Shown: piece by piece, positions 2,961 through 36,717 of the stretch | Layout: every line of letters begins with the position of its first letter | Position numbering within the stretch: the first letter of the stretch is position 1 | Assembly: GCA_040400605.1 (NCBI GenBank) | Contig: JBBAPZ010000017.1 | Span: forward strand, 2,903-66,902 | Direction: 5' to 3' | Length of the DNA stretch: 64,000 bases | Source of the DNA: Candidatus Sericytochromatia bacterium | GTDB lineage: Bacteria; Cyanobacteriota; Sericytochromatia; S15B-MN24; JAQBPE01 | Notes under the pieces: generated by a model | Databases searched by the model: none | Told to the model about the DNA's origin: nothing | Seen by the model: only the letters and a program-made list of their open reading frames with translations | Made by a program: the position numbers and the translations under genes

Positions 2961-3724
2961 AAACCAGCCTGCCTCGGCACAAGACGCACATCCTCGATTA
3001 CACGTCCATCCTGCATCCGTATCTGACGACCACAACAGGCTGCAACATCCGGTTCGTGGGTCACAATCACCATCGTGACGCCCTGACGGTTTAAATCCTG
3101 AAAAAGGGCCATAATTTCTTCACCCGTTCGTGTATCGAGCGCACCGGTCGGTTCATCCGCGAGAATCAAGCTGGGACGATTGACCACCGCCCGCGCGATC
3201 GCCACACGCTGCTTCTGACCACCGGAAAGCTCATTGGGGCGGTTGTGCAGGCGATCGCCCAAACCCACGCGCTCAAGCGCCGCACGGGCCCGCGCCTCAC
3301 CTTCCTTCGCACCAACACCCGCATAAATCAGCGGCAACGCCACGTTCTTTAACGCAGAATAACGCGCCAGCAACTGAAAACTCTGAAAAACAAATCCAAT
3401 CTGCCGGTTGCGCGCCCGCGCCAATTCATCATCACCCAACGTCGATACCCGCTCGCCCGACAAAAAGTAAGCACCGGATGTCGGACGATCCAGACACCCA
3501 ATCACGTTCATCAAAGTCGACTTACCCGTCCCGGATGCACCGACAATGGCCACCATCTCACCCGGCGCCACCACCAGACTCACATCCCGCAGCGCATGAT
3601 ATGGAACTGCGCCACCATAGACCTTGTTGATGGCTTCCAAGGCGATGACCGGTTCCGTCACGCCCACATCCTCACGGCTTGGGTGTTTCAACAACGGGTG
3701 CCTTCCAAACGATGCGATCGCCAA
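2957..3724 (-). CDS. ABC transporter ATP-binding protein (MacB/LolD-like)
   Basis: Walker [10 protein letters not shown], signature [14 protein letters not shown], Walker B ILADEPT, H-loop. The start may be an internal GTG (VTEPVIALE) near 3658. Confidence 0.85.
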
Positions 3725-7606: not shown

Positions 7607-8746
7607 ATGAAGATTCACGAGTACCAGGGCAAACTGTTGATGGAAAAGTATCAGATTCCCACCACCAAGGGCAGCGTTGCGGACAATCCGGCGGATGCAA
7701 AGCGTATCGCGCAAGAAATCGGACGCAAAGTGGCCGTTAAGGCCCAGGTGCATGTCGGGGGTCGCGGGAAGGCGGGCGGCATCAAGATCGCCAACACGCC
7801 GGAAGAAGCTTACGAGGCGGCCAAAGCCATTCTTGGGATGAACATCAAGGGTTTGACGGTTAAAAAGGTGCTGGTCGAAGAAGCTGTGGATATTGCCACG
7901 GAGTATTATCTTGGCATGTTGGTGGATCGTGACAGCAAACGGGTCATCGTGATGGCCTCTGCGGAGGGTGGTGTCGAAATCGAGGAAGTCGCGGAGCGAT
8001 CGCCTGAGAAAATTGCAAAAGTATGGGTTGACCCCGCTGTCGGTCTCCAGGATTATCAAATTCGTCAACTGATTTTCGGGGCGGGTTTCGATCGCCGTTA
8101 TGTGAAAGAAGCAACGAGCTTCCTGCGTCATCTTTATGCGTGCATGATTGGCGCGGATGCAGACCTCGCAGAAATCAACCCGCTGGCCATCACGCAGGAT
8201 GGGCGAATGATTGCAGCGGATGCCAAGATCAACATCGACGAGAACAGCCTGTTCCGCCACCCGGATCTCGCAGGCTGGAAAGAGTCCGAAGATGGCCACG
8301 AAATCGAAGAAGAAGCGACCAGGCGGGGACTGACTTTCGTTCATCTCGGTGGCAACATCGGCATCATCGGAAATGGCGCCGGCCTCGTGATGACGAGTTT
8401 GGACGTGGTCAACCGTGAAGGCGGTAAACCTGCCAATTTCCTGGACATCGGTGGCGGCGCGAAAGCCGATGTGGTGAAGAATGCGTTGGAAATCGTGCTG
8501 ATGGAAGAAGGCCTCCAAGGCATCATGATCAATATTTTTGGTGGAATCACCCGCTGTGATGAGGTAGCCCGTGGCATCATCCATGCGACCGAAGGAATGG
8601 AGTTAAACATCCCTGTGGTCGTGCGTTTGTCAGGTACGGAAGAAGAAGCTGGCAGACGCATCCTGGAAGGCAGTGCCAAGTTCACCCCTGCCGCCAGCAT
8701 GCAGGAAGCGGCCCAAAAAGTGGTGTCACTGGCCGGCTTGAGATAA
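7607..8746 (+). CDS. sucC: succinate--CoA ligase [ADP-forming] beta subunit
   Basis: Canonical N-terminus MKIHEYQGK..., ATP-grasp fold, full length 379 aa. Confidence 0.95.
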   Translation: MKIHEYQGKLLMEKYQIPTTKGSVADNPADAKRIAQEIGRKVAVKAQVHVGGRGKAGGIKIANTPEEAYEAAKAILGMNIKGLTVKKVLVEEAVDIATEYYLGMLVDRDSKRVIVMASAEGGVEIEEVAERSPEKIAKVWVDPAVGLQDYQIRQLIFGAGFDRRYVKEATSFLRHLYACMIGADADLAEINPLAITQDGRMIAADAKINIDENSLFRHPDLAGWKESEDGHEIEEEATRRGLTFVHLGGNIGIIGNGAGLVMTSLDVVNREGGKPANFLDIGGGAKADVVKNALEIVLMEEGLQGIMINIFGGITRCDEVARGIIHATEGMELNIPVVVRLSGTEEEAGRRILEGSAKFTPAASMQEAAQKVVSLAGLR

Positions 8747-8796
8747 ACCGGTATTGGACCAAGAACCCATCACAATCACGCTGAGGAGCAAGTTTT

Positions 8797-9681
8797 ATGA
8801 GTATACTGGTCAACAAGCAGACCAAGCTGTTGGTGCAGGGCATCACGGGTCGTGAGGGTGCCTTTCACACGCAGAAGATGATCGAAGCCGGCACCCAGGT
8901 GGTAGCAGGCGTTACGCCGGGCAAGGGTGGCACACTTGACGCGAACGGGGTACCCATTTTCGATACGGTTGCGCAGGCGGTAGCCGCAACAGGCGCCAAT
9001 GCAAGCATTATTTTCGTGCCGCCGCCATTTGCGGCGGATGCGATGCTGGAATCGTTTGACGCGTTTGTGCCGTTGGTTGTGTGTATCACGGAAGGCATTC
9101 CTATTCATGACATGATCCGGGTCCACGATCGCCTGAAAACGAGTCAATCACGCTTGATTGGCCCCAACTGCCCTGGTTTGATCACCCCAGGCGAGGCCAA
9201 GCTTGGCATTATGCCCGCCCACATTTTCAAGCGCGGTAACGTCGGTATGATCAGCCGGTCCGGAACCCTTACTTATGAACTGGTTGCAGAGTTGTCGAGT
9301 CGAGGGCTCGGTATCTCGACGTGTGTGGGCATTGGTGGTGATCCCATCATCGGAACGCCGTTCATCGACTGCCTCAAACTTTTTGAGTCGGATCCCGAAA
9401 CAGAACTCGTGGTCATGGCCGGCGAAATCGGCGGGTCAGATGAAGAGACTGCCGCTGACTACATCAAATCGATGACCAAACCTGTTGTGGCCTTCATTTC
9501 CGGCCGAACAGCGCCGCCTGGCAAGCGCATGGGGCACGCGGGAGCGATCGTTTCAGGCAACAAGGGCACCGCTGAGGCAAAGGTCAAGGCACTGAGCGAA
9601 GCAGGCGTTCCTATTCCATTGAGAACGTATGAGGTGATCGACGAAGTCGAAAAACAGCTCAAACAGCTCGCCAAAGTGTAA
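8797..9681 (+). CDS. sucD: succinate--CoA ligase alpha subunit
   Basis: CoA-binding Rossmann N-terminus and the catalytic-His region (SRSGTLTYE). Directly downstream of sucC. Confidence 0.95.
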
Positions 9682-9901
9682 TTCCGCTTAAACGCATAAC
9701 TGGTTTCAGATGATGGGGTGCGCAAGAACAATCATGCGCACCCTTGCTGTATCTTGGGCAATAATGGACCTAAACAGTAAATTTTGATTATAATTTGATA
9801 AATTTACGCATAAATGATCAAGTGACTGTCGATAAGGTCTTTGGAAGAAGTAGCGCGTCAAGCGAAGCGATTGTGCCCCGAGCCCACGGAGAGACGTTTC
9901 A

Positions 9902-17327: not shown

Positions 17328-17555
17328 ATGGAAACCAACAGTCCCACCGAATCCGCCCGCGAAGCCGCTCAATCGCCCGCGCCGATCATGGCGGTCAGCT
17401 TGGACAAAGACAATCGCAAGTGGGCCGAAAACTATGTCGCAACACTACGCGAACGCCTGCAACGAGAAGAATCGCAAGATGTACCTGATCCCGTCTGGCA
17501 AAACTACCTTCGGCACGAAATTACCAGCTATGAGGATCTACTCGACCGTCTCTGA
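17328..17555 (+). CDS. hypothetical small protein
   Basis: 75-aa acidic ORF, weak RBS. Confidence 0.3.
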   Translation: METNSPTESAREAAQSPAPIMAVSLDKDNRKWAENYVATLRERLQREESQDVPDPVWQNYLRHEITSYEDLLDRL

Positions 17556-17954
17556 ACCGTGTAACAACTGTTCCACCCAGGCCCCAGACATCTGGACCAA
17601 GAGTTGCCCATCCGCCATCTGAAACACAATACCCTGCCGAAACGCCGCAACCATTACACGCTCACCACGACCATCGGCAGCGTCACCCGCCACATATTTA
17701 ATCGATAACGTCTCACCATTATAAACGTGGGTGAGCCGTCCGCCTTCCAAGGCGCTCACACCCCACGCTCGCACCGTATCGCAAATCCGATCATACAACA
17801 CGCGATCCAACACCAGCGGCTCAGCTGTGGTCTCAGAAACGGCAGGCGACAAGGCCGTATCAAAATCACCCCGCGCTTGGGCCGCACGCGCACGCTGCTT
17901 TTTCTTGCTCTTGCTCATAGCCCCCATGATGGGGAGCCCTGACAATCCTGTCAA
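17538..17954 (-). CDS. hypothetical protein with Lys-rich N-terminus
   Basis: 138 aa (MSKSKKKQRARAAQ...) with no known domain. Confidence 0.35.
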   Translation of the reverse strand: MTGLSGLPIMGAMSKSKKKQRARAAQARGDFDTALSPAVSETTAEPLVLDRVLYDRICDTVRAWGVSALEGGRLTHVYNGETLSIKYVAGDAADGRGERVMVAAFRQGIVFQMADGQLLVQMSGAWVEQLLHGSETVE

Positions 17955-18253
17955 AGCGATCGTTCTTGACGGTGATGCGACCCGTCGACATCACAAAACA
18001 TGCTTGCAGTTGTTTTCAAATGATTGAATGCGACCTGTTGGCAAACGACCCAAGCATTGAAACGATAGCTGACGACACGTGTTGTTTCCCTGACGTGCCG
18101 AACTGGCGAAATAGGGTCTGCCAACCACCGTGTTTCAGTGTTGTTTGCAAAACTCACGGACTGAACAATCAGAGCTTCCGCCGGGATGATCAGGAACGCT
18201 GGCGTGATGCAGCGGAAAATGACATGATCATGTAAAAATCAACAGGTTTTGCG

Positions 18254-19183
18254 GTGGATTTTCTCAAAAACAAGAATAACGAGGTTACTTTGTCCATTCA
18301 AACCCCTTTTAAGCCGCGCTCCATTGCCGAGTTATTGGGTCATTTTGGCTTGGTGGAGTTGCCGTTTCAATTGAGTGAGGATCCCCGTTGGCAGTTTCTG
18401 ACGCCACATTTGAAGTCTTGTCTGAGTCGCACACTGATGGGAATCGAGTCCCGTCAGGGCATGGTCAGTGTTGTGGGTGCTTATGGGTCTGGCAAGTCGA
18501 TGATGGTGCGACGTCTCGTCACCATTTTGGATGAGGATCCCGATTATGATGTGCAGGTGATTGCCAACCCCAGTTATACGGGTTTGCAGTTACTCAAGTT
18601 GATTGGGGATTTATACGGAGTCAGTCGCAAAGGCACGAAATTGGCGCAATTCGATGCGTTCGCCCGTTACTTGATGGAGGCTTATCAAAACAATCGTCAT
18701 CCGGTTTTGTTGATTGACGAAGCCCAGTTGCTCAGCGACGGTACGCGTGGCAATGGGGGCTTGCCTGTATTGAAGCAGATTAATAATTTTTCGGCACTTG
18801 ATGAGAAGTCAATTTCGATTGTGCTCGTGGGGCAAGAGACGTTGCGTCACAATTTGGCACGCCATCCTGAAATTGAAAGTCGTATTTTTACCAGCTCCAC
18901 GCTGGATCCATTGAACCGCGAGGAGGTAACGGACCTGGTTGAATTCCGTTTGCGGGTGGCAGGATGGGGTGGTGCACCGCTGTTTGCGCCGGAAGCGCTT
19001 GAGGCGTTGTATGTGGGCTCGCGCGGGGTCCCGCGTCGCGTGTGCACACTGGCATTCAACATGATGCAGGCAGCCTTTGCCGAGGGAGCGTTTTTCATAT
19101 CCGGTGCGCGCGCGCAGGAGGTGGTCGCCCGTGAAGCGAGCAATCGTGGTTTGAATCTCGAACCTGCCGTGATGGAGGAATAG
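18254..19183 (+). CDS. ExeA/GspA/MshM-like AAA ATPase (AAA_22/TniB-like)
   Basis: GTG start. ExeA-type N-terminus (FGLVELPFQLSEDPRWQFLTPHLKSCLSRTL), Walker A GAYGSGKS, Walker B LLIDEAQ. Confidence 0.7.
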   Translation: MDFLKNKNNEVTLSIQTPFKPRSIAELLGHFGLVELPFQLSEDPRWQFLTPHLKSCLSRTLMGIESRQGMVSVVGAYGSGKSMMVRRLVTILDEDPDYDVQVIANPSYTGLQLLKLIGDLYGVSRKGTKLAQFDAFARYLMEAYQNNRHPVLLIDEAQLLSDGTRGNGGLPVLKQINNFSALDEKSISIVLVGQETLRHNLARHPEIESRIFTSSTLDPLNREEVTDLVEFRLRVAGWGGAPLFAPEALEALYVGSRGVPRRVCTLAFNMMQAAFAEGAFFISGARAQEVVAREASNRGLNLEPAVMEE

Positions 19184-19189
19184 GCTGCC

Positions 19190-20218
19190 ATGACCACGTC
19201 GTCACTTAAAAAGTTCGATGAGCTGGCCATGAGTCGGAGGCAGCAGCGTGGCACGCCGTTGCCTCAGATTCCCCTCGCACAGATTGCACCGTTGCCCAAT
19301 CAGCCCAGACAGGCGATCGACCCCGACAAACTGAATGAACTGGCGACAAGCATCCGGATGCATGGCGTGATTCAACCCATCATTGTGATGGTCAGACAAA
19401 ACGTCACGGATTCCGATCCTATCCGTTACAGCATTGTTTGTGGCGAGCGTCGTTTTCGCGCAGCCCGGTTGGCCGGCCTCGATGCGATTCCGGCAGTCGT
19501 CCGTGACTACGCGGATGACGAAGTGGCCGTTTTAGCGCTACTTGAAAATTTACAAAGGGAGGATCTCACACCACTTGAAGAAGCGGAATACCTGGCGCAA
19601 TTGAAACAAAAGTATGCATTTACGGAGGAACAACTGGGCGAACGCCTGGGCAAGAGTCGTGATTACATCCATATGCGCACCCGTCTTCTCAATCTGAGTC
19701 CAGACCTCATTGAGACGTGGAAATCCGCTTCGACACCCCGCGTATTCGAAAAACTGACCCCCTCCCACGCCATTCTGCTCAACCAGGTGAAAGATGATGA
19801 TCTCCGTCAAACACTGATTCAACTCATCGTTGATGAACCAATCACCGTGGCGGAAACCCGCCGCCGTATCGACATGATCAAACAAGCCACCGAAAGTGAC
19901 GACGTAAACACCACAGAAACGGGTCAACGATTGTTGCAATCAGCGGTGAAGGGTATCAGTGACGCCGAGTTCCGGCTACGGTTACAGCAAGTTGCACCAA
20001 AACCGGCCCAATGCCTGGAGCCTGTCAGGGGGCCGGAGCCCACCTTGGTTCTTCAAGATCTGGCCATGCACCGTCTGCTCGCACCCTTGATCGCGCAAGG
20101 GGCGACATCCGTGGCCTTTCAGGAACTCGAACTTGCGCTCAAAAAAGATCTGACCTGGGTACGTCGCATTCATCGCGACAATCTGGCTGGCGGCCAAACG
20201 GGGACCAATGACGCTTGA
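19190..20218 (+). CDS. ParB/Srx-fold (ParB N-terminal nuclease-like) domain protein
   Basis: ParB-box motifs GERRFRAA and ENLQREDL. Long helical C-terminal extension. Lies 7 bp downstream of the AAA gene. Confidence 0.7.
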   Translation: MTTSSLKKFDELAMSRRQQRGTPLPQIPLAQIAPLPNQPRQAIDPDKLNELATSIRMHGVIQPIIVMVRQNVTDSDPIRYSIVCGERRFRAARLAGLDAIPAVVRDYADDEVAVLALLENLQREDLTPLEEAEYLAQLKQKYAFTEEQLGERLGKSRDYIHMRTRLLNLSPDLIETWKSASTPRVFEKLTPSHAILLNQVKDDDLRQTLIQLIVDEPITVAETRRRIDMIKQATESDDVNTTETGQRLLQSAVKGISDAEFRLRLQQVAPKPAQCLEPVRGPEPTLVLQDLAMHRLLAPLIAQGATSVAFQELELALKKDLTWVRRIHRDNLAGGQTGTNDA

Positions 20219-20272
20219 CGCGACCGGACAAGATTTATAGGATGACAACTGCGACAACATGAAAGGGATCCG

Positions 20273-21490
20273 ATGGCCACGTTAAACGTGTCTTATCCTG
20301 CTACTCAGGCGGACTGGGAAAAATTGATGGCGTTTGCCAAGCTTGTCCGTCCGCAGGATTCCGAGGGTCATTTTTTACATCAATTTCGTGAACGCCCGGA
20401 TCTCTCCGCGACTGACCACGCATTGTTGCTCGAAGATGACCAAATCATCGCAACGACTTCAATGGTGCCCCATCGGCACTATTTTGGCGATGGGGAACTC
20501 GAAGTCGGTGAATTGACCATGATGGCCACACACCCTGAGCGACGCCTGGAAGGACACGCCCGTCGTTTATATGAGCATTGGCTGGATGAAGCCCAGTCGC
20601 GCAATTATGCATATCTGTACATGTATGGCCCTGCGCGGGTGTATGAGACCATGGGTTTCGTGGCTTCTGCACCTGCCCATCACTTCCCGGTCATGCAAAT
20701 GAGCCGCGAGGTGCTCACCTCGGTCATGTCACCCTATCGGGTGCGCCCCTTGATCAAATCAGATTGTTCGATGCTGGAGGAGTTGTATGACCTCGCCAAT
20801 TGTCGAACGCCGATGGCAGAAGTTCGGTCACCCGCCTACTGGACCTATCGGTTGTCACAGACTCATCGTGACGGCTTTGGCTGGTGGGTGGTCGTGGATG
20901 AAAACAATATCCCACAAGGTTATGCGTGGGCGGATCTCCCCCACGCACGCCTGCGCGAAGTCATAGCCGGCAACGAAGAAGCCGCACGCGCCATCCTGCA
21001 ATGGATGCGCTGGGAATTGATGGAGCGCAAGTTACCCCATTTCACAGCCCAAGTGCCACTAAACCAACGTTTTGCCCAGTATGCAATCAAGGCAGGGGCA
21101 ATGGTCGCAAACCCCCACCATCACTACCCCGGAAACGGGTACGCCACCGTTAAACTACTGCGCCTGCAACCCCTGCTGCAAGCCCTCAAGACCGATTTTG
21201 AAAAACACCTCTGTGAGTCACACTATGCCGACAAAGGCTTTGATTTCACCTTTTTGATGGGCGATGAAGCAGTCAGTTTGCGCTGGTGGCGCCAACAACT
21301 TCGTATCGCACCCGGTTCGGTTGGACACGAGATTCGCCTGAACGAGACACAATGGGCACCTTTGCTCACCGGCTACCGTTCGATCAACGATTGCGAAAAC
21401 CTTGAGTTGACACCCGCGGAACGCCCCTTGATGAAAGTTCTTTTCCCAGGTGGCTACCCCCATATCTGGGATCTTGAGCACATCGATTGA
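20273..21490 (+). CDS. GNAT N-acetyltransferase, Eis-like (GNAT + SCP2-like C-terminal domain)
   Basis: GNAT motif A region followed by a C-terminal sterol-carrier-like domain. ~405 aa, typical of Eis-family enzymes. Confidence 0.65.
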   Translation: MATLNVSYPATQADWEKLMAFAKLVRPQDSEGHFLHQFRERPDLSATDHALLLEDDQIIATTSMVPHRHYFGDGELEVGELTMMATHPERRLEGHARRLYEHWLDEAQSRNYAYLYMYGPARVYETMGFVASAPAHHFPVMQMSREVLTSVMSPYRVRPLIKSDCSMLEELYDLANCRTPMAEVRSPAYWTYRLSQTHRDGFGWWVVVDENNIPQGYAWADLPHARLREVIAGNEEAARAILQWMRWELMERKLPHFTAQVPLNQRFAQYAIKAGAMVANPHHHYPGNGYATVKLLRLQPLLQALKTDFEKHLCESHYADKGFDFTFLMGDEAVSLRWWRQQLRIAPGSVGHEIRLNETQWAPLLTGYRSINDCENLELTPAERPLMKVLFPGGYPHIWDLEHID

Positions 21491-21947: not shown

Positions 21948-21999
21948 ACGGTGTTTCGTTTCATTTGTGGGTTGATCCATGGCATGTAGTGCTCAAGTA

Positions 22000-22785
22000 A
22001 TGAAGATTTTTTTGGGTGTGGAATTATTGCTGGCATTGGGCGCATGTCGTCCCAAACCAGACAAAGCGGTTTCGCCGTCACCCTCCGCGCGTGTCGTGAT
22101 TCCAATCGGTGAACCGGTGGTGGTTTCAGGCATACCCAAGGTGACTTGCGAAGCGGTGCAGTCTTGGCAACAATCGAAGAAAAAGATGCTGCTGGTGGAT
22201 GTCCGTGCACGCGAACCATTTGATAGCGAGCACATCAGCGGTGCCGTCAATCGACCGTGGGCGGTGTTGAATGAGACGTCGACCGATCTTCCGCGTAATC
22301 ACCCCATCGTTTTTTACTGTGCGTGTCCGGATGACCACAGCAGCATTGGTGCGGCCGAGACAATGCGCGACAAACATGGTTACAGGAATGTTTACGTGAT
22401 GACCGGTGGTTTGCGAGAATGGCGTGAAAAAGGTTATCCGCTCACGCAGAAAAGACAGAAGATCAAAAGTGGTGCCGATCTATACGTGCAGCACTGCGCC
22501 GGCTGTCACGGCCTTGCGGGTCAAGGAATGAAAAATGAATACCCACCGCTGGCCAAAGATCCCATCATCAATGCACCGGACCCGGAAGGTGCCATTAACA
22601 TCACCCTGTATGGCTTGATGGGTCGCCCCATACAGGGTAAACGCTATGACGCGGCCATGCCGCATTTTCATCAATTACTGAATGATCACGAAGTCGCCAG
22701 CCTGTTGACACACGTGCGTACTCACTACGGTAACCAAGCCCGGGCCGTCACACCGGCAGACGTGCGCCGCCAACGCCTGCCTTAA
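22000..22785 (+). CDS. rhodanese-domain / mono-haem cytochrome c fusion lipoprotein
   Basis: Lipobox LALGAC. Rhodanese fold with active-site Cys (FYCACPDDHSS), then a CAGCH haem-binding motif with distal Met. The track ORF starts at 21979. Confidence 0.7.
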   Translation: MKIFLGVELLLALGACRPKPDKAVSPSPSARVVIPIGEPVVVSGIPKVTCEAVQSWQQSKKKMLLVDVRAREPFDSEHISGAVNRPWAVLNETSTDLPRNHPIVFYCACPDDHSSIGAAETMRDKHGYRNVYVMTGGLREWREKGYPLTQKRQKIKSGADLYVQHCAGCHGLAGQGMKNEYPPLAKDPIINAPDPEGAINITLYGLMGRPIQGKRYDAAMPHFHQLLNDHEVASLLTHVRTHYGNQARAVTPADVRRQRLP

Positions 22786-26245: not shown

Positions 26246-28087
26246 CTATTCGCTGACCGGGCCTTGCAGCAATTCATGAACGGTTTGCATTGAAGGCGCT
26301 GTTGTGTCTGTATCGCCTGACGCTTGCAAACCACGTACGATGGTGTCGATCCGGTGGGCGAGCAAGGCGAGATCAACGGCATCGGCAGCGCGTTGACGCT
26401 GCTGTTCGGCCTGATGGCTAAAAGACAGCACTTGGGCGGGATCGACCAAAGTTTGTTTGAGGGCGATCGCATTCAAGCGAGCCAGTTTGCCGCTCACCAA
26501 ATCGTGCGCCTGGGCATCGGCATCACGTTCATGCAAAGCAAGTTTGTCAGGCATCCGATGCCCATCGCCACGCAATGCCGGACGCTGCGACACCAAGGAA
26601 GCGTTCGAGGATGCCGCCGACAGTTGGAGGCTGTCTTGCTGCCAATCCAAGGTCGGCTGCTGTACGGGTTGTGCCCGTTGCCACGCTTGCCATGCAAGCT
26701 GTTTGGCAACCGGGTCTTTGGCATCTTGCCACTGCGCAAGCATTGAATTGGCACTCACCAGGCTGCGGTCGATCGCAAGCAGTTCATCCGGTGACGAGGC
26801 CGTATCACGCTTTTTCGCCAAATCGGCCAAAAAGGCTTTAAATGCCTTCGCCTGCTCGGGTGACGCTTCAGCCAACACACGATCACCCAAACGCTGGACC
26901 TGTGAATCCAAATGACGCTTCAAACGGGTCATTTGATCCATACGCGATACCAAACTGCCAGCCTCTTGCAACGCTTGATCCAACTGATTCTGACCGGCTA
27001 AATCCAATATCCGTTTCATGGCAGACTGAAACTCAGGCCCCTGTGCCCCGGTTTCAATCCCCTGCAACAACACCTGTTCCAGTTGCGCCAAGCGTTTGCG
27101 ATCGCCCCCCGCCGGCAACCGCGCCCCCAAGTCAGCCACCCCCTGCATCGCCTGCATCGACAACTCAAAACCCGTGCGAAGCTGCCCACGTAACCCGGCA
27201 TCCGGCACCCGGTCTAACAAATCACTGACAACTGGTCCAAAATCACGCATTAACCGGCGATAAGCCAAAGAACCTGGCTCCAGGCCATGGAAACGCCGTG
27301 AAATCTCTAACGCACGCGCCCCGAGCGACTCAATGGCATTCAGGTCATCCAGCGACTGCGCGCCACCAATCGCCGCCTGCAACCACTGCCCCATCTGCGC
27401 TAACAAACGTCCCGCAGGACCCGGCAAACCATTACCCGTCAACGCCTCGCTCTGCTTCCGAAGGCGCAAAAGTACCTTGTCTGCCTCATTGAGAAAACGC
27501 TCAGCAGTACCCAACAAGGCCTGCGCTGCAGCGAAATCACCTTGACGCGCACTGTCGAATGCGCGATGCAAATAAGCGCCCACCACACGTTGAAGCTCCG
27601 GGCTTGGAATGTGAGCGATGCGCTGCGAAAGCGCTGTCATCCAATCACGCAACTGTGTCAGTTTTTTGCGATCGTTGGGCGATCGCACAGCAGCCAGCAT
27701 AGCTGTCCACTCAAAATCAAACGCAATGTTCCCGGTCATCAACCGCTCAAGCGCAGCATCATTGGTCTTGGCAGCACGCGTTGACATCGCCAACGACCAC
27801 ATCCTCAAAACGCGCCGACGCTTCTCAGCTTCAGGATCGTTGATGTTGCCCCAATCCGCCACCGGCAACGGCAATGGTTGCGGCTCAGGCGACCCGACCG
27901 TGTAACGCGACATTAAAGCGCCTTGGCCATTGAAGACTTCAATGCGTCTGATCACGCAAAACCCTCCCACAAGGTCAAATCGGCCTTCGACAGCCTGATC
28001 AAAATTCCCGAAAGCCTTACCCCGGTCTGATCCTGAATACCGGAATCGTTCCTCAAAACCGGCTGTCAGGCGTTGTAAAAAAGTCAA
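26246..28087 (-). CDS. large hypothetical alpha-helical protein
   Basis: 613-aa Ala/Leu/Gln-rich ORF with coherent coding statistics and no recognisable domain. Confidence 0.5.
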   Translation of the reverse strand: MTFLQRLTAGFEERFRYSGSDRGKAFGNFDQAVEGRFDLVGGFCVIRRIEVFNGQGALMSRYTVGSPEPQPLPLPVADWGNINDPEAEKRRRVLRMWSLAMSTRAAKTNDAALERLMTGNIAFDFEWTAMLAAVRSPNDRKKLTQLRDWMTALSQRIAHIPSPELQRVVGAYLHRAFDSARQGDFAAAQALLGTAERFLNEADKVLLRLRKQSEALTGNGLPGPAGRLLAQMGQWLQAAIGGAQSLDDLNAIESLGARALEISRRFHGLEPGSLAYRRLMRDFGPVVSDLLDRVPDAGLRGQLRTGFELSMQAMQGVADLGARLPAGGDRKRLAQLEQVLLQGIETGAQGPEFQSAMKRILDLAGQNQLDQALQEAGSLVSRMDQMTRLKRHLDSQVQRLGDRVLAEASPEQAKAFKAFLADLAKKRDTASSPDELLAIDRSLVSANSMLAQWQDAKDPVAKQLAWQAWQRAQPVQQPTLDWQQDSLQLSAASSNASLVSQRPALRGDGHRMPDKLALHERDADAQAHDLVSGKLARLNAIALKQTLVDPAQVLSFSHQAEQQRQRAADAVDLALLAHRIDTIVRGLQASGDTDTTAPSMQTVHELLQGPVSE

Positions 28088-28462
28088 TCAAAACAAGCGT
28101 AAAAAAAACCGTTTCTGTTATTCAGTCACAACGCCATCATCGAACAAACATCAAACGTCATCGTCGTTCCATCGTTGATTTCACTTGCGACATTCAACAA
28201 ACATTTAAAAATACAAAATGTACAGACAATAAACGCTAAACCGATAATTGACGGTTTGCCTGACAAAATCGTGGAAGTTTGGTGACGGCCTTGAACACCA
28301 GACAGCAACACTGTGGTTGGTGATCTCACGTTTGATTGAAGCGAAACATCAACGTGGCTTCTGGCATCGACGCACGGAAGCTGAAAAAATTGTGGCACGG
28401 AAGCGATGTGCCGCGGCATCACACGAATTCGCGCACAAAATGCATCCTCGGACTCGCAGCAC

Positions 28463-28590
28463 GAATGATGCGGAAACGCGGTTCTTGGTGATCAAATTTT
28501 AGCAATTGTTCATTAACAAGGCGTGAGTGCCTGATACTTTTGAGTTTGCCACACAAATTTTGAACAGAAACCAAGGTGTCACTGTATAGC
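28463..28590 (-). mobile_element. MITE-like repeat family copy B (inverted orientation)
   Basis: Reverse complement reads CTATACAGTGACACCTTGGTTTCTGTTCAAAATTTGTGTGGCAAACTCAAAAGTATCAGGCACTCACGCC...GATCACCAAGAACCGCGTTTCCGCATC. Confidence 0.6.
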
Positions 28591-28684
28591 ACCACCAAGG
28601 ATGGTGGGTCTCCCCCTGTTTGGCTGTGACGACCTAACGCGTGTCGGCGAAACAAAGTGATCAGCGGCATGCTACGATAAACGC

Positions 28685-29527
28685 ATGTCAGATGCGATTT
28701 GGCGCCCATTGAATCAAATCGATCCCCACTTTGTCAAAGCGGCGTTAGCCGCCAATCCCGTGCGCGCGTGCGCACTGCTCGACGCCCTGCGGATTGGGGA
28801 AGCAATGGGCTTTTTGCATCTGTTGGACATGGAGGTGCTGACCGTCCAGGATGAAATCAAGGCGGTGGTTTGGTATGACAACTGGCTGAAACCGTGGGTT
28901 GCAGGCACCAACTGGATCCCGGATTTGGCCAAACATGCGGCGGATCGCTTCGCGCCGATACAACAGATTCATGGTCCCGCTGACACGGTGGAGGGGTTGG
29001 CGCTTGCGTGGTCACTGGGCGCACCGCACCAACAACAACGCTTTTTGATTTACGAAATGAACAGCGACTACCTGAATGCCCATGTCGATGCCGAAGGATG
29101 CCGTCCGGCGCGCACTGACGAACTGCTGACCATCGCCAAACAAGAAGCCGTGATGATTTTTGAAGAAACCGGTATCAACCCCATGGATTCAGATGCTCAT
29201 CCCCATCTGATGCGGGTGGCTCGCGGGATCGATGAGCAACGCTACCACGTACTGGAAGTCGATGGCGTGATCCGCTTCCAGTTGGCTCTGGACTCGTTTG
29301 GTGATAATTGGGGCGAACTGGCCTACGGATTCACACCAACAGCATTCAGAAAGCAGGGGTATGCAGCCAGAGGGCTTGGCGGTATCAGCAAACAACTGCT
29401 GCAACGGTTGCCCATCCTGTTTGGCAGGGTGCGACCCGAAAACCTGGCAGCCAGAGCGATGCACGGACGTGTCAACTCACACCTCAGAAACTGGGAATAC
29501 TTAGAGGCCAGCTGGCGCCCAATATGA
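28685..29527 (+). CDS. hypothetical protein, possible GNAT-like C-terminal domain
   Basis: The C-terminal FRKQGYAARGLGGISKQLL resembles GNAT motif A. Weak. Confidence 0.4.
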   Translation: MSDAIWRPLNQIDPHFVKAALAANPVRACALLDALRIGEAMGFLHLLDMEVLTVQDEIKAVVWYDNWLKPWVAGTNWIPDLAKHAADRFAPIQQIHGPADTVEGLALAWSLGAPHQQQRFLIYEMNSDYLNAHVDAEGCRPARTDELLTIAKQEAVMIFEETGINPMDSDAHPHLMRVARGIDEQRYHVLEVDGVIRFQLALDSFGDNWGELAYGFTPTAFRKQGYAARGLGGISKQLLQRLPILFGRVRPENLAARAMHGRVNSHLRNWEYLEASWRPI

Positions 29528-29602
29528 CGCGTCTGCGACACGTCATCGAGCCAAATCGTGCCGCTGCGTATAGATCGTTGCCTGTTCGACACTTCAACCA
29601 AT

Positions 29603-29728
29603 CGATTACACCGTGACGAATGGGTTTTTGTTCAAACATTGTGTAGCAAACTTAAAACATCAGGCGCTGACTCGCTGTTGTCGACCATCCGCAAAGATTT
29701 AATCGCCAATCAACGCGTTTCTGTATCG
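29603..29728 (+). mobile_element. MITE-like repeat family copy C
   Basis: CGATTACACCGTGACGAATGGGTTTTTGTTCAAACATTGTGTAGCAAACTTAAAACATCAGGCGCTGACTCGCTGTTG...CCAATCAACGCGTTTCTGTATCG. Confidence 0.65.
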
Positions 29729-29931
29729 TGATTCAAACAGCGTTGTAATACTTGTTTGAGTTTACTTCGCCTGCAAATCAAAACAGTCCGTTTTGCGGAT
29801 CGGATATTTTTCAGTGGCAAAACTATCACTTGATTCTCAGGAATTCGTGCGGTGAACGGTCGAACACCTTTTCAAGCAAGCTCAGACAGGCATCACAACA
29901 GCACGCCCAATCGTTTCGAGCCGAACAGGCG

Positions 29932-31515
29932 TCAATGCGCTTGATGCGCCGCAAACTGTGGTGCAACCATTCGCAACACCATTCGAACAAAGTTAATGTT
30001 GGTAAACTCGTCACGTAAAAATGGTGCCACCTGAAAAAACAGTTTCAACAAGTCAAGCAAACCTTTATGGGAACTCAATGTGCCCAAGATACGCCAATGC
30101 GCATCCAGCGCCTCTTGCGATTGGTGCTTTTCCAATTCGAGCACCACCACGTAAAGGGTCACCAGCGTCGCATGCGCCGTGAGCAGGTCATAGTGAAACG
30201 ACAATTCTTTGGCAAAAAGCAGGTGATCCAACCATTGCGTCATCTGAGCATGGGCACGCAATTCACCGGGCATCGGCTTGCATCCATCCAAACACGCAAA
30301 TTCTGGCGACACATTCGAGAAGCCTTTAAAAAGGAACGACAGGTAAATTTCAGCCAACATTCGTTCCGCATCGGTCAAAGGGGTGAAATCATGCGCCTCA
30401 GACGGCTTCTTTAAAGGCTCGGCCAACACATCGGTCATCATCCACAAACGCTCATGGAGTGGCGAGGCATCATCGTTGAGTATGCGCCGCAACCGGCTCT
30501 CCATCTGCTTGAACTCATCCCATGTGACCGGATGATCCGGTGTCAACAGGAACTGTTCAGGCGGGGTCCACGGACGAGACAAAATCAAGCGTGTCCGAAT
30601 ATCCGCTGAGTGCGCAGCCAAAGGTAAACCAATTCCCTTACGCGCGCTATCACAAAAATGGCTGGTGGTAACCGCCACGCCATCCGGCGTTTCAACAAAT
30701 CGATACGGGTAAACGATACATGTATGGAAAACCGGTGTTCCCAAAAAAAGATGCAGGCGACAGCGATTTTGGGTATCGAGAAATCGACATGTTTCATCAG
30801 GTTTTTTAACGTATAAGGTATCGTCGTCACAGGGTTCCAATTGTAAACCCTCGAACTCGGGCGCAAACTCGGACCAAGGCAGTTGATCCAAAAGACGCTG
30901 CGTTGCCCGCTCGGTCGTCACCTCCCATTTCATTTTGCAACACGCACCCGAACCTTGACACGAAAAACGCGCATCTTCCTGAAACAACAAGGGCTGGTCA
31001 CCAGGCTGGTAACGTCGCCGATAAGCCAAATCGAGCCAATCACGATACGAATGCGCCGATGTCCGTAAAAATGGAATATCGCTTAACGCCATTGCACGCC
31101 CTTTGCCGAAACTCCACGCCTCGACACAAGCAGCCAACGTCAGCCAAACCAACTCGAGACGCGCTTCGACAACCCGAACCCCAAAAGCCAACCACAGAGG
31201 CTGATTCTGACCCTCCGTCAAAAAACGCGCCCACACAACGCCTTCCGACGCACCGTCGTCAAGACCACTCACCCACTCACACGTACCCTGAGCGGGAAAA
31301 GCCCACAATTCCTCCAAACAAGACACCACACGGTCATGATGCGCCCGCGCGAATTGAACCGGGTCTACCTCACGCTTGGTGACAACCTCATTACCCAGCA
31401 ATAAATCAGCATCCGATGCCCAAAAATCAAGGTATGCAAGGCCTTCTGAAGGCTGATTACGCAGCTCGAAAAACCGAACGAGCAATCGCTCGGCATCCAC
31501 CCTCGTCAACATCAC
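29932..31515 (-). CDS. YkgJ/FliB-family (CxxCxxCC zinc/iron-chelating domain) protein
   Basis: CQGSGACC followed by additional Cys (CRFLDTQNRCRLH), as in the flagellin lysine-N-methylase/YkgJ family. 527 aa. Confidence 0.5.
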   Translation of the reverse strand: MMLTRVDAERLLVRFFELRNQPSEGLAYLDFWASDADLLLGNEVVTKREVDPVQFARAHHDRVVSCLEELWAFPAQGTCEWVSGLDDGASEGVVWARFLTEGQNQPLWLAFGVRVVEARLELVWLTLAACVEAWSFGKGRAMALSDIPFLRTSAHSYRDWLDLAYRRRYQPGDQPLLFQEDARFSCQGSGACCKMKWEVTTERATQRLLDQLPWSEFAPEFEGLQLEPCDDDTLYVKKPDETCRFLDTQNRCRLHLFLGTPVFHTCIVYPYRFVETPDGVAVTTSHFCDSARKGIGLPLAAHSADIRTRLILSRPWTPPEQFLLTPDHPVTWDEFKQMESRLRRILNDDASPLHERLWMMTDVLAEPLKKPSEAHDFTPLTDAERMLAEIYLSFLFKGFSNVSPEFACLDGCKPMPGELRAHAQMTQWLDHLLFAKELSFHYDLLTAHATLVTLYVVVLELEKHQSQEALDAHWRILGTLSSHKGLLDLLKLFFQVAPFLRDEFTNINFVRMVLRMVAPQFAAHQAH

Positions 31516-31542
31516 GCCTCCCTTTTACCCTTACACCAAATC

Positions 31543-32292
31543 TCACGCCCTCGGCGAAGTGGTCACACCCTCGTCACTCGTTTTGGGTGGTTCTGTAAAA
31601 CCCTTGCACAATGCGTCGAAAACACTTTCGGCACCATCCAGCAATTTGAGCGCCGTATGCGCCCGATAAACCAAACCACTCAACTGCGGCACTTTCAATG
31701 CCTTCATGTTTGCCAGATACTCGACCCCCGTGGCAGGCACTTCCTGGGCCTCTTTTTGTGCCAAAAGCGCCTGAAGCGCCGTATCGAGATTGGCAAAATC
31801 CTGTCTGAAGCGCTCCCAAGCCAACAAACGTTCGGGATCATGCAAACACCGCTCACGCTCTGCCAACCACGCATCAGGTACACTCCTTGGCGGCGCCTTG
31901 CCGGCTTGGGCCGCTGGAATATCACGCCGCAACAAACCGTCAAGACGCGCCAACAACAGATAATCCATTTGAGCAGTGACCAACGCAATCTCCAACGTCC
32001 GTGCCTCAAAAGCCGGCGTCAAAGCTTGGGTAGGCACCTGAAAAACGGGTGAGTCAACCGCGTAACACTCAATCTGAGCCAAACCCAATTCAGCAAGGCG
32101 CAACTGTAGGACAAGAAATTCGCGTGCACGGCTCGCAGTGCGCGTCCCATGACGAGACAGTTTTTGACGACTGACCTTGAGCAACTCGCCAAGCTCTTTA
32201 CGCTTCTGAACCATTTTCAACTGCGTTTGGCGGTACTCCTTGCTGATACGCTCCCATTGCGCTTGATCCTCGGGCGTCAACTTTTTCGTCAT
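31543..32292 (-). CDS. hypothetical helical protein
   Basis: Start MTKKLTPEDQ sits 8 bp after the upstream stop and has an AGGA RBS. The track ORF (to 32424) overlaps the upstream gene. Confidence 0.45.
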   Translation of the reverse strand: MTKKLTPEDQAQWERISKEYRQTQLKMVQKRKELGELLKVSRQKLSRHGTRTASRAREFLVLQLRLAELGLAQIECYAVDSPVFQVPTQALTPAFEARTLEIALVTAQMDYLLLARLDGLLRRDIPAAQAGKAPPRSVPDAWLAERERCLHDPERLLAWERFRQDFANLDTALQALLAQKEAQEVPATGVEYLANMKALKVPQLSGLVYRAHTALKLLDGAESVFDALCKGFTEPPKTSDEGVTTSPRA

Positions 32293-32299
32293 GGCTCGC

Positions 32300-33358
32300 C
32301 TAATTCCTGAACAACGACTTAAACCGTGAACCCAAAACACCATCGGCAGGTGACGCTTGCTCAGGCTCAGATATCGCCTGCGCGATGTAGGCCTTGACTG
32401 CTGGGTCCGCCGGGGCCTGATCAAAACTCAATGGCCCGGACAATGGTCCAAGATCGGAAACGGCACGGTTCAAATAGTAAACCTTTCCCGCAACCTGCCG
32501 AATAAAGGGTGCCGCCGTCGCCATGTCCATCGACAAGGTCCCTGTCTCAAAACCCCGCAACGACTTCAACATCTCTTCCAATTCCCTGAAATGGTTGAGC
32601 AACACCGTCAGCTTCGTCCGCATCCCTTTATCCCTTGCCGATTCTGCCACCTGTTGCAGCAAACCCGTATCCGGTTCAGGCGCACTGACTTTAGCAGGCG
32701 ACATCCCCGGTCGCGTCAAAGAAGGTGACTTACCGACAGGAGCACCGGGAACTGGACGAGCGCCAACAGCAGGCGGCCGTCCAACCCCCACAACGGGCGC
32801 AGCAGGAGCCGCAGGACGTGGAACGCCTGGCAAAGGCTTGCCTGGTACGCTTCGCCCCGGCAAGCCCGGTATGGACGGTAAACTGGGTTTGGTTTCAGCC
32901 AATTGGGCAGTTCCGAGAGACGCGCTCCCCTGCCCCGAAGCCTCGGCCGGTTCCGTCACTTTTTGAGCCAAGGCCTGCTCAATGATGCCCGCAGTCCGCT
33001 GATAATGCGCCACATAATACTCGGTGGTCAAATACTGGGTTTTCAAAGCGATCAACTCAACCTTGCCCGATATCGCCGAAAAGCCGCCCCCCGCCCGCTC
33101 GGTCTGCGCAAGCAACATCATCATCTCCAACGTGCACAAAGCAGCCTGACGACGTAGCTCATTTTTTTGAACCTGGATATCCCGAGTGGGCGACGCAGGC
33201 TCTCTGGCAAGACGCTCCAATTCTTTTGACGCAAACTGCACCATGGCCTGCGCGTTCTTCATATACCCCTGGGATTCGTTCATCACTTCCCGGCGGCGTT
33301 GCTCAATTTTTTCGATCTCACGCTCGATCTGTTTGATCTGCTGCTCAGGGGTCAACAC
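32300..33358 (-). CDS. hypothetical coiled-coil protein with central Pro-rich linker
   Basis: N-terminal coiled coil (EQQIKQIEREIEKIEQRRRE), then a PGxPxP-rich region and a C-terminal helical domain. Confidence 0.5.
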   Translation of the reverse strand: MLTPEQQIKQIEREIEKIEQRRREVMNESQGYMKNAQAMVQFASKELERLAREPASPTRDIQVQKNELRRQAALCTLEMMMLLAQTERAGGGFSAISGKVELIALKTQYLTTEYYVAHYQRTAGIIEQALAQKVTEPAEASGQGSASLGTAQLAETKPSLPSIPGLPGRSVPGKPLPGVPRPAAPAAPVVGVGRPPAVGARPVPGAPVGKSPSLTRPGMSPAKVSAPEPDTGLLQQVAESARDKGMRTKLTVLLNHFRELEEMLKSLRGFETGTLSMDMATAAPFIRQVAGKVYYLNRAVSDLGPLSGPLSFDQAPADPAVKAYIAQAISEPEQASPADGVLGSRFKSLFRN

Positions 33359-33384
33359 ACGTTATACCTTTCTGAAATCATCAC

Positions 33385-33612
33385 TTAAACTTGCAGATCC
33401 CTCAACGTTTTCAAAATAATCTGATTAAGAATGTCATTCGTGAAGGCCAACTCCTGTAGCGCCTTGTTCAACCTGATTTGGCTACGGATCAGATCCTCCG
33501 ACGTTCCTCCCTGCTGAAAAACATTCGTCGCCTCAACGGTCTCCCCAGACCACTTGCGCAAATTCACGCTGCTCGCATAAGCCCCGTTGGCCACCACGCC
33601 ATATAAACTCAT
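33385..33612 (-). CDS. small helical protein (75 aa), weak FliE/inner-rod-like C-terminus
   Basis: The C-terminal ...NDILNQIILKTLRDLQV loosely resembles the FliE C-terminal helix (...RNKLVAAYQEVMSMQV). The N-terminus is paralogous to ORF 36328-36582. Confidence 0.4.
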   Translation of the reverse strand: MSLYGVVANGAYASSVNLRKWSGETVEATNVFQQGGTSEDLIRSQIRLNKALQELAFTNDILNQIILKTLRDLQV

Positions 33613-33748
33613 TCGCAGCCCCCCAAGAAATATCCGACTCCATCAATAGTCATACCCGGACATTCCACAATTCTCACCGAGAACAAAAGGGTGCCAGCAC
33701 AAGCCAACACCCTTTCATTTCCAAAAACGAAACGCCGAGTAGACCGAC

Positions 33749-34003
33749 TTAGCGAGGCATCTCGTTGATTTTTTCCATCGCCTTCTTGAGTGATTCCAAA
33801 GCCTGCTTGGCTGCTTCAAGATCACGCTGCAACTCTTGCATCAGCATATTAATCTCTTGCAGACGCTGCGAAGTCACGTTGCCTCGCCGAATCTCATCGG
33901 TCAGGCCCTTCATTCCACCAATAATGTCACTGATCTTACCGTTCAGATTGTACTGGGCCTGAAGCATATCAAGCTGAGTACTTGCCGGATTTCCAACTCC
34001 CAT
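33749..34003 (-). CDS. small coiled-coil protein (84 aa)
   Basis: Heptad-rich C-terminal half (QRLQEINMLMQELQRDLEAAKQALESLKKAMEKI). Confidence 0.4.
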   Translation of the reverse strand: MGVGNPASTQLDMLQAQYNLNGKISDIIGGMKGLTDEIRRGNVTSQRLQEINMLMQELQRDLEAAKQALESLKKAMEKINEMPR

Positions 34004-34807
34004 GTTCTTGCTCCTTCTCGTTTCAATTCACTGCCTGCGTGTTGGGGTTAAATGACCGAATCGCCCGTCGCTCCCCCATCCTGAAAGCTATATACCAAGC
34101 TCTTTGACGTTGCTTGTCGTATTTAAAAAATATTTAATGAAACCGGAATAAAAAACAAACAGTTTGACCGAATCATCCACCGTGATCGTACCTTGAGAGA
34201 TGGCTTGGGTACCGCGCGAGAGACTGGTGTTGGCACTCATACGGCACGTCATAAAAAATGTTTCAGTGTTGATTTGAGTTTGCTCAATCGCTGAACACGC
34301 GTCACGCGTTTTGTGGATCAAATCTTTTTTGAAACAGCAGGATAACTTGCTATCCGAAAGATTATAAGATGGACTATCAAACGCCCATTAACCCTTGAGC
34401 GGGCATTCGACAGTCCACCATGCGAAATCCTGGAAATTAAGTCGTAGCCTTTTCAAAGAAAAATCTTCGTTCCGCAAAACGAGCTGTTTCGGTTTGTAGG
34501 CGACGCATTCTCAAGCAAGCATCGCAACGACGTTTCAAACACAGTTCGATTTGATGAAACGTCGAAACAGCGTTGCGAGTGACAGTAGAAAGTTAGGCTA
34601 AAAAATTTAAATATTATATTAATATTTTTAGTCTTATTATTTTGGCAACCTGGTCCTTGTCGCATGGTGGGTCGGAGCAAAAAATCTCAAAGGAAATGGG
34701 GTGATCCGCCATCTCAGTGCGAATCACCCTAAGAGAGAATGCCACAAACGAAAAGCATCAAAGCAAGTCAAGCGCATCCGCTCAAACTCACACGGGCAAG
34801 AGGAACC

Positions 34808-36274: not shown

Positions 36275-36327
36275 GGTTTCTCCCTCACCCGCACACGGGT
36301 CTCAAACCAGTTACCTGGCCAGTTGAC

Positions 36328-36582: not shown

Positions 36583-36717
36583 CTGCGCCTCCTCTAAACC
36601 TGAACCAAGAATCAGATCAATTAGTACCTTTGATGTTCTTTTCCCCGACTTTGCGCTCAATCTTGCGGCTTTCGAACAAGCTTTAAACGAAGATTAATCT
36701 CACGCGACCCACCATCA

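Follow-up and report, generated by a model that had tools for sequence, protein, structure and literature searches.

The DNA analysed here (64,000 nucleotides, hereafter the window) is positions 2,903 to 66,902 of contig JBBAPZ010000017.1 (assembly GCA_040400605.1) from a Candidatus Sericytochromatia bacterium. Sericytochromatia are an uncultured, non-photosynthetic sister lineage of Cyanobacteria. Two neighbouring open reading frames (ORFs) on the plus strand, at 18254-19183 (309 amino acids) and 19190-20218 (342 amino acids), encode an AAA+ ATPase of the ExeA/GspA family and a ParB protein, respectively. A 405-amino acid ORF lies downstream at 20273-21490, and a divergent 138-amino acid ORF lies upstream at 17538-17954. 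A preliminary description of this DNA had singled out the pair, and both frames are present as it described them. The motifs it named are all found: FGLxxxPF (as FGLVELPF) at the N-terminus, GAYGSGKS (Walker A) and LLIDEAQ (Walker B) in the ATPase, and GERRFRAA and ENLQREDL in ParB.

The ATPase, the ParB and their gene junction

As read directly from the sequence, six nucleotides separate the stop of the ATPase gene from the start of parB. The parB Shine-Dalgarno sequence, GGAGGA (19175-19180, plus strand), lies within the final codons at the 3' end of the ATPase gene, and this embedding of the ribosome-binding site indicates that translation of the two proteins is coupled. The junction is similarly compact in relatives, where the ATPase gene ends and parB starts at 10915/10915 (locus L001), 3188/3188 (L002), 1774/1781 (L008) and 10896/10903 (L177). 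Co-occurrence in other genomes, a check that the preliminary description proposed, is borne out: the two genes are adjacent at no fewer than seven distinct orthologous loci, at least six further loci carry a paralogous pair, and the overlap or gap is always 0-8 bp. The ATPase start probably needs correction. An alignment of orthologous upstream regions contains a conserved GAGG, which an in-frame TTG (18290) follows after 5 nt. Because the annotated GTG at 18254 precedes this conserved Shine-Dalgarno sequence, TTG 18290 is the likelier true start, and it would yield a product of 297 amino acids that matches the relatives in length.

In Pfam, the ATPase matches AAA_22 (1.2e-16) and, more weakly, TniB (PF05621), AAA_16 and STAND-type models. 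The TniB score, 26.4 bits against a cut-off of 22.4, is far weaker than that of AAA_22. The only NCBIfam match is the PEP-CTERM model TIGR03015, whose cut-off is 324.5 bits and on which the ATPase scores 140.5. With a score below this cut-off and no exopolysaccharide (EPS) genes adjacent, membership in the XrtA/PEP-CTERM group fails. The protein is homologous over its full length to proteins annotated by their sources as GspA, ExeA or MshM. Across an alignment of 47 homologues, the Walker A and B motifs, N178, R210 and R261 are invariant, and little or no variation is seen at G32, L33, P37, F38, G78, G80, K81 and D155. Judged from these residues, the ATPase is catalytically intact. Its AlphaFold2 (AF2) model has a predicted local distance difference test (pLDDT) score of 91.7. 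Profile matches in the PDB are to ORC1, TnsC (VchTnsC and ShTnsC), Cdc6 and MuB, and Foldseek matches of the model are to ORC2, Cdc6, ORC1 and ShCAST TnsC, with a TM-score of 0.74. No transmembrane segment was found in the protein (maximum Kyte-Doolittle(19) value of 1.22, compared with 2.89 in the ExeA-like protein P0120), and a Pfam scan found no peptidoglycan-binding domain (PF01471). By sequence and model, the ATPase is a soluble, DNA-type AAA+ protein of the ExeA family. The ATPase is 78-80% identical to its relatives and the ParB 59-60%, compared with 71% for the housekeeping protein SerRS and 85% for PilT. A motor that is better conserved than its adaptor is the usual pattern.

The likeness to the ExeA-ExeB/GspA-GspB and MshM-MshN systems comprises the AAA+ core, the FGLxExPF and GxPR lid motifs, and a tightly coupled downstream partner gene. 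The ATPase domain of ExeA is needed to form a complex with ExeB, which is encoded downstream, and the classical 60-kDa ExeA contains a transmembrane segment and a periplasmic peptidoglycan-binding domain (PMC4098917). In contrast, the window ATPase lacks the transmembrane and peptidoglycan-binding parts, has a ParB as its partner, and is not accompanied by a type II secretion system (T2SS) or MSHA cluster.

The ParB contains both ParB_N (PF02195; 6.8e-30) and HTH_ParB (PF17762; 1.6e-16), which makes it a complete ParB/Spo0J-type protein with a CTPase domain and a helix-turn-helix (HTH) domain. The preliminary description had called it a ParB/Srx-fold nuclease-domain protein. The N-terminal ParB domain stands, but the nuclease label understates a protein that also contains HTH_ParB. 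The protein scores 150.6 bits on the NCBIfam model TIGR00180 (cut-off 58.45) and 174.1 bits on the Noc model TIGR04285 (cut-off 315). Its sequence matches in the PDB are Noc (7nfu; 1.9e-35) and Spo0J (6sdk; 3.8e-35), both CDP/CTPgammaS-bound structures. Box I (QPR), Box II (GERRxRA) and Box III (ENxxR; ENLQRE in the window) are invariant in the ParB alignments of both clades described below. ParB proteins are CTP-gated DNA clamps (PMC7053999, PMC8494293). Both the conserved boxes and the predicted fold suggest that the window ParB would bind CTP and close as a clamp. The AF2 model (pLDDT of 86.5, with C-terminal helices 292-329 above 90) aligns with the Caulobacter ParB-parS structure at a TM-score of 0.83-0.85, and KorB was also matched by Foldseek.

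Compared with the canonical ParB of ParABS systems (Spo0J), the window ParB has the CTPase boxes and HTH in common and a core that is 35-47% identical. However, it lacks the LG[KR]GL motif and the canonical C-terminal domain. The ParA-binding motif was searched for as [LIFVM]G[KR]G[LIFVM]; its form in a survey of orphan ParBs is [LIF]G[KR]G[LIF] (10.1101/2025.10.10.680097). None of the 40 ParBs from the family of the window protein (type 1) and none of the five from a second family (type 2) carries it, compared with 76 of the 77 other ParB hits, and the single motif-less protein among the latter carries the name Noc in its source. Many of the other hits have the canonical C-terminal dimerisation domain (PF23552-type, 'KGxIxIxY..DLxRI'), which was not recorded in this ParB clade; a two-helix C-terminal module is confidently predicted by AF2 in its place. 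At the other end is a lineage-specific helix, which reads SLKKFDELA in the window; the conserved form is SLKAFDxLA for type 1 and GTWDQLL for type 2. This helix is predicted at residues 5-18 (pLDDT of ~52) and is rich in charged residues (SLKKFDELAMSRRQ). The recognition helix also departs from the canonical KSRPx[IV]ANxLRLL, reading KSRDY[IV]H[MN]RTRLL in type 1 and KNKA[YW]VDHRVRLL in type 2. In the window ParB it is KSRDYIHMRTRLL, against KSRPxIANxLRLL in Spo0J-type proteins.

Orphan ParBs are defined by a TIGR00180-type organisation, a location outside a parAB operon and the absence of the ParA-binding motif (10.1101/2025.10.10.680097). All three features are found in the window ParB. Unlike in a parAB operon, the gene upstream encodes an AAA+ ATPase (AAA_22) that is not of the ParA type, and no canonical parS is nearby. 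No Soj homologue was detected in the window (E<=10) or at any fetched Sericytochromatia locus, so the protein is not an ordinary ParB or Noc with a ParA in its vicinity. Orphan status by itself is not unusual, since roughly 23% of the parB genes on chromosomes are not part of a parAB operon (10.1101/2025.10.10.680097).

Two paralogous pairs and the partners of related ATPases

In a database of 5.8 billion proteins, the type 1 family is discrete. ATPase identities to the window protein range from 75 to 86% and then drop to 40%, and ParB identities range from 51 to 63% and then drop to 40%. Type 2 was first seen through P0162, the next-best Sericytochromatia ParB (40% identical), whose gene is preceded by an overlapping AAA_22 gene. 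This family is also discrete (identities of 66-92%, then 37%). The two types are 33-37% identical in the ATPase and 31-36% identical in ParB. All named close homologues come from metagenome-assembled genomes (MAGs) of Candidatus Sericytochromatia or from MAGs labelled Cyanobacteria or Oscillatoriaceae. Four MAGs (isolate 454980, SMAG_U16484/DATNPP01, RYN_339/JAQBPE01 and LC083) have both types, at different chromosomal sites; assemblies GCA_035284745.1 and GCA_036675505.1 are among them. Each type is monophyletic in 100 of 100 neighbour-joining bootstraps, in the ATPase tree and the ParB tree alike, and the two types group as sisters in 31 of 100 replicates for the ATPase and 10 of 100 for ParB. 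The ATPase-ParB module comprises two ancient paralogous pairs per genome.

Both pairs occupy conserved positions. In the window, the surrounding genes encode a MacB-type ABC exporter, PanE, SucCD, Crp, SerRS, PilT, FliD, a glyoxalase and a rhodanese-cytochrome c protein. The order Crp, SerRS, one further gene, PilT, FliD (minus strand), small ORF (minus strand), ATPase, ParB and GNAT acetyltransferase is retained in other MAGs, and synteny breaks only past the GNAT gene. Type 2 loci, on contigs of 187-233 kb, have a synteny of their own: TldD/PmbA, a MalK-like ABC protein, an SLH-like protein, ATPase, ParB, ETF-alpha/beta and urocanase. The retained synteny, together with the presence of the small ORF at every type 1 locus, indicates that the pair belongs to the core genome and not to an island. 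The variable-island context raised in the preliminary description is thus not borne out, as the position among housekeeping genes is conserved in several MAGs. Conservation of the position does not extend to membership in a known pathway, for which no sign was found. No integrase, transposase or tRNA gene was found at the borders, and the window has no compositional anomaly and no inflection of GC skew.

Beyond Sericytochromatia, related ATPases have other partners. Distant homologues either precede GspB-like (T2SSB) proteins or are set in EPS loci. Directly after the nearest homologues (38-50% identical) come HTH or winged-helix proteins, on plasmids and mobile genetic elements (MGEs), including a weak Phage_rep_O-like protein, an HTH_36 protein and a weak LexA-like protein. 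The closest of all outside the lineage are on integrase-bearing elements from Pyrinomonadaceae (L005-L007) and IMG/VR (L173), at 8001-9774. There, the ATPase gene overlaps the gene of a 324-amino acid partner with a weak Phage_rep_O-like region. The possibility that this partner is a hidden ParB was rejected (hhalign probability of 0.2%). These elements also carry tail and baseplate genes, and a ThiF/Prok-E2 cluster lies near the ATPase gene.

Other near homologues, from Anaerolineae, are followed by a protein of about 110 amino acids, beside genes for DnaA_N-domain proteins and ParA. One is encoded on the 212-kb Leptolinea sp. HRD-7 plasmid AP024711.1 (L170, 189793-202515), and the arrangement is also found in L094 (2214-6145). 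The recurrence of the ATPase and its ~110-amino acid partner beside DnaA_N proteins and ParA/Soj genes suggests a replicon-maintenance role for this Anaerolineae subclade.

When ATPase patterns were scanned against 185,579 species, each represented by a single genome, ParB was found immediately 3' of the ATPase gene in Sericytochromatia only. About 70 other ExeA-like loci in the same scan are without ParB, and one Anaerolineae MAG has the order ATPase, 111-amino acid ORF, ParA and ParB. When the Anaerolineae protein was used to seed a metagenome scan, its arrangement was found only in 95%-identical copies and was lost in relatives of 75-78% identity. The same scan yielded three further direct ATPase-ParB pairs. 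In the Anaerolineae locus L016, the ParB (2345-3361), encoded directly 3' of ParA, has GSRR in place of GERR in Box II and no LG[KR]GL motif. Plasmid matches in PLSDB are EPS/PEP-CTERM loci, transposase-linked AAA ATPases and the Leptolinea replicon region, with no ATPase-ParB pair. Four IMG/VR loci with an ATPase homologue have no ParB, and no homologue was found among 50,697 phage records.

The partners also differ at their N-termini. Almost all GspB/MshN-like partners (L018-L169) start with MS[LYI]I[LN][DEQ][AM]L[KR][KD], a conserved peptide that may be an ATPase-docking element across the whole ExeA family. Partners that are tied to DNA-binding proteins have other conserved N-terminal peptides (e.g., TFAxLYDxQEEL, GYAALYDIS and AGFEALY).

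A candidate DNA-handling module and its alternatives

The ATPase and ParB probably form a functionally coupled module that acts on DNA. On balance, we read the pair as a chromosomal, Sericytochromatia-specific two-protein DNA-handling module, in which a soluble ATPase of the AAA+ ExeA/GspA family has taken the place of ParA as the partner of an orphan ParB. The preliminary description had set the pair apart from the standard modules for partition, secretion and transposition. This agrees with the locus, where ParA, GspB/MshN, transposase and integrase were not found, and with the literature searched. In that literature, no earlier description was returned for ParB together with ExeA/GspA or for Sericytochromatia ParB, which is not proof of absence. 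The survey of orphan ParBs describes MGE-borne, fast-diversifying orphans and domain fusions, with no AAA+/ExeA-like partner (10.1101/2025.10.10.680097). The window ParB, in contrast, is core-chromosomal, syntenic, duplicated and translationally coupled to a conserved ATPase.

The proposed mechanism draws on analogy with MuB/MuA, TnsC/TniQ and ParA/ParB. The closest solved structures of the window ATPase are TnsC/TniB/MuB and ORC/Cdc6 proteins, at an identity of only 15-18%. These ATPases oligomerise on double-stranded DNA with ATP under the direction of a sequence-specific DNA-binding partner, and the cooperation between the ATPase and ParB is modelled on them for this reason. The window ATPase differs from TnsC/TniB/MuB in that no transposase (TnsB/TniA/MuA), TniQ or TnsD is found beside it or its relatives, and from ORC/Cdc6 in that it lacks a winged-helix domain and an origin context. 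We know of no demonstration of DNA binding by an ExeA-family protein. In the proposed scheme, ParB dimers would recognise a non-canonical centromere-like site through the altered recognition helix. From Boxes I-III, the HTH and known ParB biochemistry, ParB would then bind CTP, close into a sliding clamp and spread on DNA. The co-translated ATPase, when bound to ATP, would assemble on double-stranded DNA and contact ParB through the lineage-specific N-terminal helix, the C-terminal module or both. More speculatively, ATP hydrolysis under the control of ParB could position, move or remodel the ParB-DNA complex, with the ATPase acting either as a functional substitute for ParA or as a loader or unloader of the ParB clamp. 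A role as ParA substitute would be analogous to the MuA-stimulated release of DNA-bound MuB.

Particular versions of this scheme are graded lower. It is rather doubtful that the ATPase specifically replaces ParA as a segregation motor. It is likewise unlikely that the pair represents a new class of partition system, in which a DNA-bound, ORC/TnsC/MuB-like AAA+ oligomer patterned by the CTP-loaded ParB clamp moves or positions loci.

Several points weigh against the DNA-handling reading. The canonical parS (TGTTNCACGTGAAACA) has no match with up to three mismatches in the 64 kb, an absence that is consistent with the altered recognition helix of ParB. Searches for recurrent or cross-locus palindromes as de novo ParB sites returned only the HIP1-type GCGATCGC, GC-rich noise and palindromes of conserved codons, and thus no binding site to propose. 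The presence of ParA and a canonical ParB elsewhere in the genomes would weaken the ParA-substitute version. The neighbour-joining trees do not show a single co-duplication origin of the two pairs. The Anaerolineae association of ATPase, ParA and ParB may be accidental because ParA intervenes and the link is lost in relatives of 75-78% identity. No PLSDB plasmid or phage record has such a pair, although a self-sufficient partition cassette should spread on these replicons. Finally, the N-terminus of ParB was rejected as a GspB-type docking peptide, as a profile of 46 GspB peptides scores it at about 0 bits.

If the partition version is true, an AAA+ type would join the three known classes of partition motor (ParA, ParM and TubZ), and each Sericytochromatia cell would have two orthogonal AAA+/ParB systems. 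ParB is the founding CTP-dependent DNA clamp, and its known effectors are ParA, SMC, the membrane (through Noc) and KorA. An AAA+ partner that is conserved and coupled to ParB in translation would represent a new class of effector and could reveal how a different kind of NTPase reads out the clamp. The ExeA/GspA family is poorly understood, and its soluble branch would thereby gain a first DNA-related function. The module bears on the chromosome biology of Sericytochromatia and hints at an undescribed mode of chromosome organisation or segregation. If the two genes are merely an accident of co-transcription, what is left is an ordinary orphan ParB.

Of the alternatives, the one that survives best, as a tentative and minority explanation, makes ParB a CTP-dependent clamp for nucleoid occlusion or silencing, as in Noc and KorB of RK2. 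The ATPase would then act in regulation alongside ParB, much as KorA locks KorB, rather than as a motor, and the two paralogous pairs would govern different regulons or functions. Noc and KorB are CTP-dependent clamps and are ParB paralogues that work without a stimulating ParA. The best NCBIfam and PDB sequence matches of the window ParB are to Noc (174 bits; 7nfu, 1.9e-35), its structure resembles KorB, it lacks the ParA motif as Noc does, and a short, possibly amphipathic N-terminal helix is predicted where the membrane helix of Noc sits. No parS cluster surrounds the locus. Non-segregation orphan ParBs are common as well, and parB genes that are not in a parAB operon make up ~23% of those on chromosomes (10.1101/2025.10.10.680097). 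However, the score is far under the Noc cut-off (174 versus 315), the protein comes from a different phylum than Noc (Bacillota), and its N-terminal helix is highly charged (SLKKFDELAMSRRQ), unlike the hydrophobic helix of Noc. The partners also differ, being an AAA+ ATPase for the window ParB, the membrane for Noc and KorA for KorB, and we know of no AAA+ partner in any Noc or KorB system. The highly conserved, intact ATPase suggests energy-dependent work rather than simple co-repression.

It is improbable that the ATPase is an ORC/Cdc6/DnaC-type initiator or a helicase-loader accessory recruited by a site-specific ParB. Its fold and profile are closest to ORC1/Cdc6, its closest homologues adjoin the weak Phage_rep_O-like protein on integrase-bearing elements or an HTH_36 protein, and others adjoin DnaA_N-domain proteins, once on the Leptolinea plasmid. 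Yet the Rep-like assignments are weak (E of ~2e-3, under the Pfam cut-offs), and the window has no dnaA, dnaN or other origin marker and no inflection of GC skew. Two chromosomal copies at ordinary metabolic loci are unlike origins, and we know of no ParB protein that acts as an initiator.

An envelope function has a small chance of being correct. In this case, the ATPase would help to assemble a pilus or secretin, as ordinary factors of the GspA/ExeA/MshM type do, and its gene would lie next to parB by an accident of operon structure, with no functional coupling. The source annotations of its homologues and the N-terminal FGLxExPF motif of the family point this way, as does the proximity of PilT (3.7 kb upstream) and FliD. 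Against this stand the absence from the ATPase of a transmembrane segment and a peptidoglycan-binding domain, and of a GspB/MshN-like partner. The neighbour-joining tree places both ATPase types outside the GspB-linked GspB/ExeA/MshM cluster. Moreover, the type 2 pair keeps its ParB adjacency at a locus without pilus or flagellar genes, and the ribosome-binding site within the ATPase gene is conserved across paralogues of ~35% identity.

The preliminary description had raised the possibility of a defence, addiction or MGE-related system. In such a system, directed against phages for example, the AAA+ ATPase would act together with a ParB/Srx-fold effector. Conflict systems include both ParB-fold domains and AAA+/STAND-like ATPases, and the closest ATPase relatives outside the lineage sit on MGEs. 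Mobile elements are also enriched in orphan ParBs (10.1101/2025.10.10.680097). The suggestion is nonetheless very improbable, as PADLOC-DB v2 returned no system, leaving the ATPase unmatched and ParB with only a weak MTase_II match (9e-5) through its ParB_N domain; no phage homologues were found; both pairs hold syntenic core positions; the window has normal composition, and the borders there are free of integrase, transposase and tRNA; the ATPase is conserved at a housekeeping level; and ParB has the full HTH centromere-binding architecture with no nuclease fusion.

Flanking genes and other features of the window

The block at 18217-18236 (plus strand), upstream of the ATPase gene, is the sole well-conserved stretch in an alignment of five orthologous upstream regions. 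It contains an extended -10-like sequence, TGACATGAT, at 18220-18228, followed by the conserved GGTTTTTC and GAGG. The block is a putative promoter of the ATPase-ParB operon; a generic sigma-70 scan did not flag it. A 16-bp near-palindrome, TGACATGATCATGTAA, at 18220 is present in the window only, and the palindrome is not kept in relatives.

The small ORF (17538-17954, minus strand) is divergent from the operon and likely starts at the methionine of MSKSKKK, at about 17918. It has no match among the Pfam, NCBIfam and PADLOC models. Every type 1 locus has a homologue in this position (E of 1e-16 to 1e-20; 46-49% identity), whereas type 2 loci have none. The lysine-rich ORF noted in the preliminary description is thus real, basic and conserved upstream of every orthologous locus.

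The downstream gene (20273-21490, plus strand) encodes a GNAT acetyltransferase that matches Acetyltransf_9 (1.8e-13), an Eis-type N-terminal domain. The earlier designation as an Eis-like GNAT holds for the GNAT family, whereas 'Eis-like' rests on the family and a weak PDB match (3n7z; 8.7e-4). The gene follows parB in all type 1 loci (E of 1e-137 to 1e-176; 57-59% identity) and is missing from type 2 loci. A gap of 54 nt separates it from parB, with a weak promoter-like site at 20215-20243. Its membership in the ATPase-ParB module is uncertain. Past the GNAT gene, an ORF at 21979-22785 (plus strand) combines a rhodanese domain with a c-type cytochrome domain, and it takes the place of giant Ser/Thr-kinase/AAA_16/GAF genes in the relatives L001 and L002.

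Elsewhere in the window, the region 26246-38154 contains, mostly on the minus strand, seven large ORFs (613, 280, 527, 293, 352, 488 and 478 amino acids) with no Pfam match at 1e-5. The run adjoins genes for a BNR/Ycf48-like protein (38189-39847) and an FlgE/F/G-like protein (39859-40668), and it may be a lineage-specific block of surface or motility genes. The HIP1 octamer GCGATCGC occurs 22 times in the 64 kb (e.g., at 1259, 3195, 6655, 37691, 38783 and 47505), compared with 1.2 expected copies and a maximum of four in 200 shuffles. These copies indicate that HIP1-type enrichment reaches a non-photosynthetic Sericytochromatia genome.

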